Below are positions 1 to 3,000 of a stretch of 64,000 nt of DNA, in pieces. Origin of the DNA: a plasmid; NCBI RefSeq assembly GCF_988242995.1, contig NZ_OZ547044.1. One strand, written 5' to 3'. Made by a program: the position numbers. Within the stretch, counting starts at the first letter, position 1. Every line of letters starts with the position of its first letter.

Positions 1-3000
1 AAAAAATTAAACAGGTGAAGGAGAATAATATGCGTTTAGCATCCCGATTTGGACTTACTCATTCCATTCGTCAGGAACGCCCACTGACTAACGATGAATT
101 GGTCAAGGTTGTACCTTCTGTGTTTTCAGAAGAAAAGCATAATTCACGTAGTGATCGCTATACCTATATTCCAACCATTACACTGCTGGATAAATTACGT
201 GAAGAAGGTTTCCAGCCATTTTTTGCCTGTCAGTCACGAGTAAGGGATGAGGATAAACGGGGGCATACTAAGCATATGGTAAGACTTCGCCGTGAAGGGG
301 CCAATAAAGGAACAGAAGTACCCGAAATCATTCTTCTTAACTCGCATGATGGATCGTCCAGTTATCAAATGATCCCGGGTATGTTCCGTTTTGTATGCAC
401 AAATGGCCTTGTGTACGGTACGTCGTTTGGTGAGATTCGTGTACCTCATAAAGGTGATATTGTGGGAAGGGTTATCGAAGGTGCTTACGAAGTTTTGGGA
501 ATTTTCGATAAAATAACTGAAGGCGTTGATGTCATGAAGTCTATTGCCTTAACCAAGGAAGAACAGCGTCTGTTTGGACAAGCTGCATTAACCTACCGAT
601 ATGAAGATGAAAATAAATCTCCGGTCAGTATTGAACAGATAATTCATCCGCGCCGTTATGAAGATAAAAAAGATGACATCTGGACTACATATCAAAGGGT
701 CCAGGAAAATCTGATTAAAGGCGGTTTGCCTGGCCGAACTGAAAAAAGGGAAAAGAACAACAACCCGGCCAGTAAAAGCAATCGATGGTGATGTTAAACT
801 CAATAAGGCATTGTGGTTAATTGCGGAGAAATTCCGCACTCTTAAAGGCTAATTATAAGCGCCGGGCAGCTGTCCGGCGTTTTGATGGTGGAAATACTTA
901 TGTTTGAATTTAAAGCTGTCTGTATCAGTATTTCACATATGGAAGAAGGTGATATCAGAGTTCTTCAGGTGCTTTCATCAACAACCAATTATCTAACTTG
1001 CGATAGTTACTTAGAGTGGATACATGATACACCTTATGGTTGTGTTATAAGGATGTATGATTTCAAACGCCATCTTCTGGCGCTAAAAAGAGGTGGGGTG
1101 TCAAAATTTTTACGCAAAAATCTCATACTAATGCACCGGGAGGGCGGGTATCTGCTTTTTCATTTTGATAGTGATGCCGATTATTATCCAGGTATAGATG
1201 CCGTAGATTTTTAAGAAATTCAAGCCTTCTTATATCAGAAGGTTTTTTAGTTCATGGCGATTTTCTGATCTTTAGAAGAAGTTCGTTTGCTTGCTTTGAT
1301 AGCCGTGTAGTGGTAATGGATCTTCTTCGCATACTCGTAACGTCTTGCTGCCTGGCGCGGGGTCTTTTTGAAGCCTGCATTGTATGCCCCGACTGCATCC
1401 CACGAAACGCCCCACTTTTTAAACGCCTGAGCCAGATAATAGGCTCCGGTGTAGATGTTAAGACAAGCATCGCTAAGAAGATGATCCGGTTTTATTCCAT
1501 ATCGCGACAGTTCGTTGAAATGCTGCGAGTCAATTTGCATCAAGCCTGATCCATAACCCGTAACAGGATTACGCCCAATCGCATCAATTTTAAATCGTGA
1601 TTCTTGCCATGATATAGCACGCAGGAGATCCGGATCAATTTTGTAATCCCTGCCAGCCATATCAAAGCAGTCTGCTGCCATTGATGACAATGGTATTAAA
1701 GACAGGATGATACCAAACGCTACTCCCTTCATGAATTCCCCTCCGTGCCAAATCCCGGAATAACCTTAACCCATCCAAGACCGAGACTCAACATATATGC
1801 ACTCCTCACCACAAAATCACCACACACTACGCAAAATTAAAATTTTGCAGATTTCACTTTAGCTTCAGTGGCTTAACTGTAGTTATATTACATTATGTTA
1901 TTTTTCTTTATATATATGTGAGTTGCCGGCGAGTCAGTAGTAAGTCGTCGGTAAGTCTATAGCGACTCGTTTATGACTCACTCTTTTATAATCATATATT
2001 TAAAGCGACTTAACTCTAGACTTAAGTCGTCATATGACTCGTAATGCAACTTTCTTAGACTCTAGACTTAAGTTTAGAGTTGTAAAGAAGGTAAACTCGC
2101 GTTATCTTCTCGCCATAATAACTTGCTTGATGCTGTTTTTAATAAAGGAACCGATATGGCCAGGGTACAAGCTTATGCTAGTGATGAAGTTGCAGAGAAA
2201 ATTAATGCAATAGTGGAAAAGCGAAGGGCTGAAGGGGCAAAGGAAAAGGATGTCAGTTTTTCAAGTGTCGCTTCGATGCTCCTTGAATTAGGGCTTAGGG
2301 TTTATGAGGCTCAAATGGAAAGAAAAGATTCAGGGTTTAACCAAACTGAGTTTAATAAGATTTTGCTTGAGAATGTCATGAAGACTCAGTTTACTGTATC
2401 CAAACTTTTGGCTATTGGCTCTCTAAGCCCTCATGTTACAGGTGATGAACGATTCGAGTTCCGCAGCATGGTGAGTAACATTCGAGAAGATGCAAAAGAT
2501 GTTATTTCTCACTTCTTCCCCGAGCAGGAAGAAGAGTAAGAACTGGTGTGTGTTTATGGTGGTTTGTAATTAATTCAGCAGTAAAAAAAGAATAATGAAC
2601 TAGCTTTAAAAAGTGACATGGAAGAATAAGGAATATAGAATACTTACAGGGTTGTAATAAAATTTGTTGAAGCGTTGACGTCCGGGGCTAGTCCCCCCGA
2701 ACGTCAACTATCCATAGTGTCCTTTCCAGGAGGCGCCTATGTGTGCGAAGGATCGTAGTCATATTGCTGTGCGCAGTCAAACAGATTCCATTCATTCTAT
2801 GCGCGAGATGCTTAATATTTCATCTTGCCCTGCTTTTATTCGTGATTCCCGGGGCGAAGTAATTCACACCAGCCCAACCTTTGACAAAATTTTCTTAACA
2901 TCTGGTGGAACTGGAGCATTTGATACACCCAGAGCACCTGGAAGCTGGTTTCTGGATCTCTCCCTGGAGATCAAACTGGAACTGATGCAGTCAGAACTGA

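Follow-up and report, generated by a model that had tools for sequence, protein, structure and literature searches.

The gap at 1733-2155 of the window (the whole 64-kb stretch of plasmid DNA that was analysed) is very probably the oriT of an IncFII(K) F-like conjugative plasmid of the Klebsiella pKPN3/pKPHS2/pKDO1 type, an assignment carried by sequence identity, synteny and covariation. The oriT is an ordinary one, because it is identical to the same site in more than 1000 sequenced plasmids, and the site, its family and its function are already established. For a Klebsiella plasmid with multidrug resistance (tet(A), aac(3)-IIe, blaOXA-1 and aac(6')-Ib-cr), recognition of the oriT shows where transfer is directed in cis and gives the order of entry. 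To oriT biology it adds nothing new, the sole mildly new point being that residue 3 of TraM covaries with the motif found in oriT.

Setting and relatives of the oriT

The gap is 423 bp long, has a G+C content of 37%, and is flanked by traM and a divergent SLT gene (Table 1). Its position at the head of the tra operon, between SLT/orf169/gene X and traM, is a layout common to F, R100 and pKPHS2. Downstream of it lie traJ, FinP, traY, traA-traX and finO, with a full-length MOBF TraI further along. The gene order orf169-oriT-traM-traJ-traY and the polarity are shared with F, as is the order of elements within the site, namely, nic, hairpin, A+T-rich IHF/TraY region, and three clusters of TraM sites (cryo-EM, PMC12117103). 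The first-pass annotation had taken 1780-2110 to be an F-like oriT and had proposed alignment as a check. Aligned with F (NC_002483) and R100 (NR1), the region matches the oriT of both, the nic core and its 3' flank sharing a run of invariant columns, and synteny and the TraI encoded in cis agree with the earlier reading. For R1 a proxy was used, a plasmid whose TraM domain is identical to that of R1.

In PLSDB, the stretch 1700-2200 is found at 100% identity in at least 30 top-listed records, and 1119 of the 3219 matching records are at least 99% identical to it. Plasmid pKDO1 (NC_019389) and many others are 100% identical to the window over this stretch. The oriT of pKPHS2 (NC_016846, Klebsiella pneumoniae IncFII(K)) differs by 2 substitutions in 390 nt, with nic, hairpin and TraM-site repeats identical. 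The Rfam scan returned FinP, CopA and AS-traG only; no oriT family exists there.

On the other side of the gap, the SLT gene is the first of the leading region. It starts 89 nt from nic and is placed and oriented alike in F, R100 and pKPHS2. Gene X had earlier been assigned to the ORF at 30-791, but that ORF belongs to a DUF932 gene, and gene X is the SLT gene on the minus strand. A tblastn search with the R100 homologue of the DUF932 gene gave a split match, in frame +3 (30-740) and frame +1 (748-846). In pKPHS2 the gene is intact (822 nt), unlike the frameshifted copy of the window; otherwise the two plasmids show no difference of substance.

Table 1. Features of the oriT region and of the transfer genes discussed in the text; the vertical bar marks the nick.
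Feature	Position	Strand	Basis
DUF932 gene of the leading region, with a frameshift in an A-run near 741-748	30..852	+	Pfam E=6e-48
SLT lytic-transglycosylase gene, homologue of F orf169 ('gene X') and R1 P19	1247..1732	-	Pfam SLT E=2e-23; synteny
Leading ~27 nt of transferred strand, on the 3' side of nic (GGTGATTTTGTGGTGAGGAGTGCATAT...)	1795..1821	-	Alignment, repeat search
TraI relaxase recognition sequence and nic core, 5'-TTTGCGTAGTGTGT|GGTGATTTTG-3'	1812..1835	-	Exact match, F/R100 alignment, published oligonucleotides
Inverted repeat GCAAAATT-nn-AATTTTGC, hairpin of 7-8 bp	1831..1848		Directly 5' of the nic core on the transferred strand
A+T-rich spacer	1849..1930		30% G+C overall; 14% over 1885-1920
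Predicted TraM site nearest nic, sbmC-like	1931..1979		GAGTC, AAGTC, AAGTC, GACTC, GACTC at exact 11-bp phasing
Predicted palindromic TraM site, sbmB-like	2006..2040		Half-sites 2007, 2012, 2019, 2024 and GACTC 2036; first 15-nt copy
Predicted palindromic TraM site, sbmA-like, near traM promoter region	2058..2081		Half-sites 2058, 2065, 2070, 2077; second 15-nt copy
traM, 127 aa	2156..2539	+	ATG 2156, AAGGA upstream; Pfam Tra_M E=4e-56
traY, short single ribbon-helix-helix form, 67-71 aa, relaxosome accessory protein	3579..3794	+	Pfam TraY E=7e-24; annotated in pKDO1
traI, MOBF relaxase-helicase, 1752 aa	30214..35472	+	Pfam TrwC and TraI domains; alignments

The TraM region and the A+T-rich spacer

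The TraM of R1 and of pED208 read GANTC through residues 3, 5 and 7 (PMC3159463). The N-terminal beta-ribbon of the window TraM is M-A-R-V-Q-A-Y (R3/Q5/Y7), as against MAKVQAY in R1 and MPKIQTY in pED208 (PDB 3ON0, 1DP3). The window protein thus has the Gln5 and Tyr7 of the R1/pED208-type allele, together with GANTC in its oriT, but Arg and not Lys at residue 3. The RefSeq start of traM (TTG 2123, 138 aa) was set aside for ATG 2156, the codon that follows an AAGGA Shine-Dalgarno sequence and opens the conserved M-A-R/K-V DNA-reading ribbon.

GANTC-like motifs number 11-12 per 311-nt span at oriT against a mean of 0.72 elsewhere, an enrichment of about 16-fold and the maximum in the 64 kb; 5 are exact GANTC and 6 are one-off. 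The 15-nt sequence ACTCTAGACTTAAGT occurs in two exact copies (2013-2027 and 2059-2073) 46 bp apart, each within a palindrome (2006-2029 and 2059-2080). In both palindromic clusters (2006-2040 and 2058-2081) alternate half-sites are 12 bp apart, which is the spacing in the pED208 TraM-sbmA crystal structure (PMC3159463). The enrichment, the phasing, the palindromes, and the covariation of TraM allele with motif together predict that the clusters at 1931-2081 are TraM sites. The other F-like alleles differ here. The TraM of R100 has I5, and its oriT is without a GANTC array, having 2 motifs only. The TraM of F (N5) reads A(G/C)CG(G/C)T, a motif absent from the window oriT.

The ctctagacttaagt repeats had been thought to fit both relaxase and TraM sites. 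The TraM half of that proposal agrees with the GANTC-like half-sites and their phasing, but the relaxase half fails, since the 15-nt repeats are made of such half-sites with TraM-type phasing and TraI of the F family recognises the nic core in single-stranded form. The relaxase site consists of this single-stranded core and its hairpin.

The palindromes and 15-nt repeats at 2006-2081 might instead be mainly operators of traM autoregulation or promoter elements, rather than oriT proper. The traM start is 75-150 bp downstream of the repeats, weak promoter-like hexamers occur nearby, and in F the autorepression of traM works through sbmA and sbmB, which overlap its promoters, and transfer depends most on sbmC (PMC3159463). 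However, deletion work in F found the sbm sites to be required for efficient transfer (PMC12117103), and a sigma-70 promoter scan of 1200-2800 was indecisive, giving 8 sites against 3.6 expected, none of them convincingly placed for traM. We regard a mainly regulatory role as unlikely, although it deserves weight. It is also compatible with a role in oriT, because TraM-bound sites serve both functions in F.

Between the hairpin and the first predicted TraM site, the A+T-rich spacer occupies the position of the IHF-A and TraY (sbyA/C) sites of F, and by analogy may serve the same proteins. It contains ACAT/ATGT/ATTT subsites resembling those described for R1 TraY. Across the window the IHF consensus (WATCAANNNNTTR, 1 mismatch) gave 30 matches against 42 expected, and none of these falls in 1849-1930; the only matches in the oriT region are at 1835-1847, inside the hairpin, and at 1990-2002. 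The scan is useless for placing IHF sites because its matches are no commoner than chance.

The relaxase, the nic core and transfer

The catalytic residues of the window TraI, Tyr16 and His146/157/159, are invariant in the alignment, and its PDB matches include F TraI (E=1e-153). Its relaxase domain is 73% identical to that of R100 and 99.7% identical to that of pKPHS2. The latter plasmid self-transfers, deletion of its traI abolishes transfer, and its cloned oriT is mobilised only with traI (PMC10691111; the clone boundaries are not in the main text).

It is very improbable that the oriT is a relic of a plasmid that no longer transfers, its nic silenced by a broken tra gene or by complete FinOP repression. 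A FinP RNA (2668-2745) and a finO-sized ORF are present, and therefore transfer is probably repressed; the leading-region DUF932 gene is frameshifted, and mobility typing of the 3219 PLSDB matches returned 557 as non-mobilizable. Against this, the same typing returned 2508 as conjugative, the large tra ORFs are all full length (traB, C, N, G, D, I), and the relaxase domain is nearly that of the self-transmissible pKPHS2. The oriT would also still be usable in cis should the plasmid's own tra genes fail.

The 24-nt sequence TTTGCGTAGTGTGTGGTGATTTTG has a single exact occurrence in the 64-kb window, at 1835..1812 of the minus strand. A second nic site was absent from the window at up to 3 mismatches, and the string was absent from 100 dinucleotide shuffles, none being expected by chance. 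The core fits the TraI recognition pattern 5'-GCGT(G/A)G(G/T)GTGT|GGTG-3' and keeps the bases of the 'three-base interaction' of F (T-1, G-2, G-4). The bases that discriminate F from R100, A1828 (-7) and T1826 (-5) of the minus strand, are both R100-type. The core is accordingly the R100 variant GTAGTGTGT and not the F variant GTGGGGTGT, and these alleles match exactly the published oligonucleotides of F (TTTGCGTGGGGTGT GGTGCTTT; PMC2504302) and R100 (hairpin oligo, ...TTTTTGCGTAGTGTGT; PMC3074121). The bases 5' of the nick are identical in R100 (TTTGCGTAGTGTGT|GGTG), whose hairpin is in the same place. On the 3' side a block GGTG.TTTT.GTGGTGAG is conserved in the alignment. This side also holds a difference that counts against the best explanation: compared with F and R100, C is replaced by A at +5 and one G is missing. 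By analogy with the F relaxosome structure (PMC12117103), the stretch 1795-1821 probably serves to load TraI in its helicase mode.

By homology, the nick is predicted at T1822|G1821 of the minus strand, T1822 being the last base of GTGT and G1821 the first of GGTG. No biochemical nick mapping for this plasmid family was found in the papers retrieved. That the nick lies elsewhere, such as at a second TGT|GGTGA copy near 1811|1810 or on the plus strand, is scarcely credible: although TGTGGTGA is present twice on the minus strand, at 1824-1817 (which holds nic) and, 11 nt further, at 1813-1806, and although the position in this family rests on homology, the specificity of TraI resides mainly in a stretch of about 9 bases (GCGTAGTGTGT) on the 5' side of the nick, F TraI loses up to more than 8000-fold in binding when a single base at -1, -2 or -4 is changed (PMC2504302), the second copy is preceded by GATTT and not GTAGTG, and the first aligns column for column with the mapped nic of F and R100.

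The inverted repeat gcaaaattaaaattttgc has 8-nt arms (1831-1838 and 1841-1848), 100% complementary and with a 2-nt spacer, and its right arm overlaps the TTTTGC that opens the nic motif. The predicted DNA fold has a free energy of -5.3 kcal/mol (z=-3.8), and the F/R100 hairpin has -5.4 with the same geometry. The stem differs from that of F and R100 by two compensatory pair changes that leave the stability equal. In F the hairpin favours the joining reaction of TraI (PMC3074121). The first-pass annotation had anticipated most of this picture from the sequence: a perfect inverted repeat adjoining nic, a nic motif of R100 rather than F type (now joined by the published oligonucleotides and the state of TraI residues 193 and 201, below), and a nick near 1821/1822 of the minus strand, for which its arithmetic was right. 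It also had the low-coordinate side entering the recipient first, which agrees with the minus strand being the one that reads 5'-GTGT|GGTG-3'.

Judged by homology with F and R100, transfer may proceed as follows. IHF, TraY and TraM would assemble on the duplex at about 1849-2081. The N-terminal trans-esterase domain of the plasmid's TraI would bind the melted minus strand at 5'-GCGTAGTGTGT|GG-3', and Tyr16 would cleave T1822|G1821 and remain linked to the 5' phosphate of G1821. As the TraI helicase unwinds 5'->3', the minus strand would enter the recipient from 1821 towards lower coordinates; 1821 -> 1 would enter first, as the strand is transferred 5'->3' with TraI remaining on its 5' end. 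The order of entry would be the SLT 'gene X', DUF5983, DUF932 and the remaining leading region, with the tra operon last. The hairpin at 1831-1848 would arrive at the very end, because it is just 5' of the nic site, and would help the terminating re-ligation.

Probable modular specificity of nic and TraM sites

Harley and Schildbach are said to have identified, in 2003, TraI residues 193 and 201 as specificity determinants. The window TraI has Arg193/Gln201, as does R100, where the entire segment 186-205 is in the same state; F has Gln193/Arg201. Among 8 plasmids, nic type follows these residues throughout, AGTG occurring with R193/Q201 (4/4) and GGGG with Q193/R201 (4/4). A doubly mutated F TraI takes on R100 specificity (PMC7826260). 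An R100-type TraI, and not an F-type one, would thus be the relaxase able to act on the window oriT.

The oriT had been called R100/R1-type. The R100 part holds for nic, but the R1 part does not: the proxy for R1, E. coli HG739084, whose TraM residues 2-56 are identical to those of R1 (PDB 1dp3), combines the F-type nic GTGGGGTGT with TraI Q193/R201. The resemblance of the window to R1 lies in the TraM/sbm module. As read from the sequences, specificity is modular, the nic/TraI pair being the R100 allele, and the TraM/sbm pair a GANTC-reading allele related to R1/pED208, with central C/G here.

The central base pair was compared with TraM residue 3 in 11 Q5-type plasmids. In the 4 with Arg3 (the window, Kp ABFQB, Cronobacter and Pantoea), the oriT has 0 GAWTC against 4-9 GASTC; the window motifs are GACTC/GAGTC, often GACTT. 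The other 7 have Lys3, and 6 of these have almost only GA(A/T)TC, that is GAATC/GATTC (8-13 against 0-2), Serratia being mixed (6 against 5). The same nic/TraI allele is found with K3 or R3 TraM modules, the same R3 TraM N-terminus is found with either nic type, and homology breaks between the modules at about 1854. A possibility that these comparisons raise, and that we hold tentatively at a little short of an even chance, is that there are two separable, freely reassorting lock-and-key modules: nic with TraI 193/201, and TraM residue 3 with the GANTC central base pair. A literature search on TraM and GANTC, of incomplete coverage, returned one relevant structural paper (2011) and no K3/R3 central-base rule. 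If residue 3 does set the central-base preference, this would add a part not yet described to the TraM recognition code and would allow a prediction of which F-like plasmids, when co-resident, are insulated from one another at the TraM step.

The nic module is also found by itself. Small ColE1-like plasmids with only an oriT and pLVPK-type virulence plasmids of Klebsiella have the same hairpin and nic module, as in a 3.3-kb ColRNAI plasmid (GCAAAATTTTAATTTTGCGTAGTGTGT|GG). They are without traM, the sbm array and a relaxase gene, and their match to the window stops near 1802 on one side and between ~1853 and 1917 on the other. Such 'relaxase-in-trans' plasmids are mobilised by IncF helpers (PMC8299605, PMC10691111). 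The relaxase specificity predicts which relaxase-less plasmids the window plasmid could mobilise, namely, those sharing the AGTG nic module, including small ColRNAI plasmids.

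Nic site and cognate relaxase

The site is a real F-like oriT, in which an R100-type nic/TraI pair is combined with an R1/pED208-like TraM module. When both strands of 1700-2200 are read, 5'-TTTGCGTAGTGTGTGGTGATTTTG-3' is found on the minus strand, from 1835 down to 1812. This 24-mer has only one site in the 64-kb window, allowing up to three mismatches, and had no match in 100 dinucleotide-preserving shuffles. On the minus strand the last base of GTGT is T1822 and the first base of GGTG is G1821, and therefore a nick after GTGT would fall between 1822 and 1821, in agreement with the first-pass annotation. 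No primer-extension or in vitro nick mapping for the IncFII(K) Klebsiella family was found in the literature, so this position is a prediction, strongly grounded in homology. An inverted repeat (1831-1848) overlaps the first bases of the motif. Reading and a repeat search bore out the nic string, this inverted repeat and the 15-nt repeats, all of which had been noticed earlier. The nick-containing octamer TGTGGTGA (minus strand, 1817-1824) has a second copy at 1806-1813, 11 nt further along the transferred strand, which makes another TGT|GGTGA without the upstream recognition bases; the F and R100 equivalent of this copy is TGGTGGTGA.

The nic regions were aligned on the transferred strand, and the rows read AAATCTGCAAAATTTTAATTTTGCGTAGTGTGT|GGTGATTTT-GTGGTGAGG for the window, AAATCAGCAAAAACTTGTTTTTGCGTAGTGTGT|GGTGCTTTTGGTGGTGAGA for R100 and AAATCAGCAAAAACTTGTTTTTGCGTGGGGTGT|GGTGCTTTTGGTGGTGAGA for F. 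The published F TraI substrate is 5'-TTTGCGTGGGGTGT GGTGCTTT-3' (PMC2504302) and the published 'Hairpin R100' oligo is GCAAAAACTTGTTTTTGCGTAGTGTGT (PMC3074121). The motifs behind the initial call of an R100-type rather than F-type nic match these oligos, and at the two bases that tell R100 from F (A1828 and T1826) the window is of R100 type. In F, correct placement of the scissile phosphate requires an intrastrand triple of T-1, G-2 and G-4 (PMC2504302), and these bases are conserved in the window. Unlike R100, the window carries A instead of C at +5, lacks one G 3' of nic and has another hairpin stem. The stem differences are two compensatory pairs (AC..GT to TT..AA) that leave hairpin geometry and stability unchanged (-5.3 vs -5.4 kcal/mol in R100). 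The 5' hairpin in F favours the joining (termination) reaction of TraI, not the initial cleavage (PMC3074121).

Over its N-terminal 330 residues the window TraI shares 73% identity with R100 and 69% with F, and Tyr16 and His146/157/159 are retained in the alignment. Of the 25 positions in residues 1-300 where F and R100 TraI differ, 13 carry the R100 residue in the window and two the F residue, with a run of R100 states in the 186-205 segment (S186, L190, R193, K198, I199, Q201, R205). Harley and Schildbach, in PNAS in 2003, are said to have swapped F and R100 TraI specificity by exchanging residues 193 and 201. An F TraI double mutant switches specificity to the R100 target (PMC7826260). Covariation was tested with the nic cores and TraI sequences of eight plasmids. 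All four with the R100-type core AGTG (window, pKPHS2, pKp199-1 and R100) have R193/Q201, and all four with the F-type core GGGG (F, an R1-type E. coli plasmid, a Salmonella pSLT-like plasmid and a Pantoea plasmid) have Q193/R201. The covariation persists with relaxase identity to the window down to 68%.

TraM sites and TraM allele

The 15-nt direct repeats are built of GANTC-like half-sites (GACTC, GAGTC and GACTT/AAGTC). There are 11-12 such half-sites in 1931-2081 vs an average of 0.72 in equivalent spans elsewhere, making this the window's densest cluster. In the crystal of pED208 TraM with its binding site sbmA, each of two tetramers contacts every other GANTC motif, at 12-bp intervals (PMC3159463). 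The half-site groups in the window have the same spacing geometry. Of the two roles earlier proposed for the repeats, relaxase and TraM binding, the second stands as a prediction from the half-sites and their geometry, and the first is rejected because the repeats are composed of half-sites so arranged.

The window TraM begins MARVQAY, compared with (M)AKVQAY in R1 (PDB 1dp3), MPKIQTY in pED208, MARVILY in R100 and MAKVNLY in F. The R1 and pED208 proteins read GANTC via residues 3, 5 and 7, and F TraM (N5) reads A(G/C)CG(G/C)T (Wong et al., PMC3159463). Because of the MARVQAY ribbon and this GANTC-reading rule, the TraM/sbm module is classed by sequence as R1/pED208-like, not R100-like. The label 'R100/R1-type' given earlier runs two modules together: nic/TraI, which is R100-type, and TraM/sbm, which is R1-like. 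An R1-type nic is not borne out: HG739084, a proxy for R1 itself with an R1-identical TraM domain, has an F-type nic and F-type TraI residues. RefSeq starts traM in identical plasmids at TTG 2123 (138 aa). ATG 2156 is preceded by the Shine-Dalgarno sequence AAGGA and gives the conserved M-A-R-V-Q N-terminus of the DNA-reading beta-ribbon, and translation probably begins 11 codons downstream of the annotated start.

Across 11 plasmids with Q5-type TraM (Gln at residue 5), a small and phylogenetically non-independent sample, the central base of GANTC follows TraM residue 3. With R3, all four plasmids carry 4-9 GASTC and 0 GAWTC. With K3, six of seven carry 8-13 GAWTC against 0-2 GASTC, and the seventh, from Serratia, is mixed (6 GAWTC vs 5 GASTC). 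The loci concerned are window 2156-2176 (TraM residues 1-7) with 1931-2081, and L007, L011, L014 and L021-L027 in other plasmids. No description of this rule was found in the searchable literature, and the covariation may reflect a part of TraM allele specificity not yet described. It is the one lead on this oriT that is modestly new.

Genetic setting and polarity of transfer

The oriT region is an intergenic gap of 423 bp (1733-2155) with a G+C content of 37%, vs 53% for the window. Left of the adjoining SLT gene are DUF5983 and DUF932 ORFs (Pfam); downstream of traM come a TraJ-sized ORF, then traY, traA, traL, traE, traK, traB and onward. The layout around oriT is as in F (NC_002483), R100 (NC_002134) and Klebsiella pKPHS2. 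The IncFII CopA RNA and repA lie at about 40.7-42.4 kb, with an IS26-rich resistance region beyond.

Features of the window around oriT and elsewhere
Feature	Coordinates	Strand	Remarks
SLT-domain lytic transglycosylase	1247-1732	minus	Pfam E=2e-23; left of oriT gap
Inverted repeat GCAAAATT/AATTTTGC (I12)	1831-1838, 1841-1848		perfect arms, 2-nt spacer
Predicted TraM site	1931-1979		five half-sites, exact 11-bp phasing
Predicted TraM site, palindrome I7	2006-2029		four half-sites, alternate ones 12 bp apart
Predicted TraM site, palindrome I6	2058-2081		four half-sites, alternate ones 12 bp apart
15-nt direct repeat ACTCTAGACTTAAGT (D1)	2013-2027, 2059-2073		exact copies, each within a palindrome (I7, I6)
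traM			right of oriT gap; Pfam E=4e-56
FinP antisense RNA	2668-2745	minus	Rfam 54.5 bits; overlaps TraJ-sized ORF/traJ leader
AS-traG	23193-23278	minus	Rfam; inside traG
TraI, 1752 aa	30214-35472		TrwC relaxase and TraI helicase domains
CopA, IncFII copy-number control RNA	40660-40748	minus	Rfam; upstream of repA
IS26 transposase ORFs (five)	42410-43132, 47827-48549, 50701-51423, 54121-54843, 57134-57856

In F, TraI becomes attached through Tyr16 to the 5' phosphate of nic and leads the strand during transfer (PMC3074121). The nicked strand here, reading GTGT|GGTG, is the minus strand, and therefore the transferred strand would start at G1821 and run to lower coordinates, the polarity originally proposed. 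The SLT gene, which starts 89 nt from nic, would enter first, followed by DUF5983 and DUF932, with the tra operon last. In the F literature 'gene X' is orf169, the SLT-type gene next to oriT, and its counterpart in the window is the SLT gene at 1247-1732 on the minus strand. The ORF at 30-791, to which the first-pass annotation gave that name, is instead the DUF932 gene, third from oriT. This gene (30-852) has a frameshift in the A-run gaaaaaaggg at about 741-748, and the alignment with its R100 homologue runs in frame +3 as far as 740 and continues in frame +1 over 748-846. In pKPHS2 and pKp199-1, by contrast, it is intact (822 nt). No CDS is listed at the DUF932 position in pKDO1, whose oriT is identical.

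The tract 1849-1930 has 30% G+C (14% over 1885-1920) and, by analogy, would occupy the position of the IHF-A and TraY sites in the F relaxosome; an IHF consensus scan was uninformative for siting IHF within it. A promoter scan around oriT yielded no promoter that could be assigned. The ORF in the traJ position (2739-3458, 239 aa) is a 'hypothetical protein' in pKDO1. It has no Pfam match at E<=0.001, in contrast to the PAS-domain TraJ annotated in E. coli and Salmonella relatives; it probably belongs to one of the divergent subgroups of TraJ found in MOBF12A plasmids.

Relatives of the oriT

The segment 1700-2200 matches 3219 PLSDB plasmids, 3036 of them from Klebsiella. Of these records 1119 are at least 99% identical over 1700-2200, and all 30 top-listed records, pKDO1 included, are 100% identical over its full length. 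As judged from these matches, the segment is backbone of common IncFII(K) Klebsiella plasmids. Relative to window 1733-2122, the oriT of pKPHS2 has two differences in 390 positions, neither of them in the nic core or hairpin, and the relaxase domains are 99.7% identical. Self-transfer of pKPHS2 occurs at ~7e-6 and is abolished by traI deletion; its oriT, cloned into pACYC184, is mobilised with pKPHS2 as helper but not when the helper lacks traI (Zhang et al., PMC10691111). The mobilisation test suggested in the first-pass annotation has effectively been made already on this near-identical oriT. The F-like oriT, correctly located and oriented there, is identical to a site in >1000 sequenced Klebsiella plasmids, has a functionally validated near-identical copy, and is already known.

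A more sensitive search gave 4653 matching records, 1312 of which cover at least 80% of 1760-2160; many match the nic module (1760-1854) only. Homology to other plasmids stops at about 1854 (1760-1854 vs 1855-2160; loci L011, L012, L015 and L016). Some large Klebsiella plasmids, such as pKp199-1, pair the same nic/TraI allele with a K3 TraM, unlike the window's, and a TraY of two domains. By itself, the module of nic and the same hairpin, with nic of either type, is found in ColRNAI plasmids of 3-6 kb that encode no relaxase and carry the type 'non-mobilizable'. They resemble the oriT-only hitchhikers previously described in Klebsiella (PMC10691111). A 3.3-kb example has the AGTG nic type, as in the window, and should be mobilisable by the window plasmid's TraI.

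Three antisense RNAs reach the Rfam gathering score (FinP, AS-traG and CopA). The multiresistance region (~42400-63900), beyond the IncFII(K) repA, carries aac(3)-IIe, a truncated catB3, blaOXA-1, aac(6')-Ib-cr and tetR/tet(A), and is 100% identical to several Klebsiella/Enterobacter plasmids, e.g. pMB2966_1.
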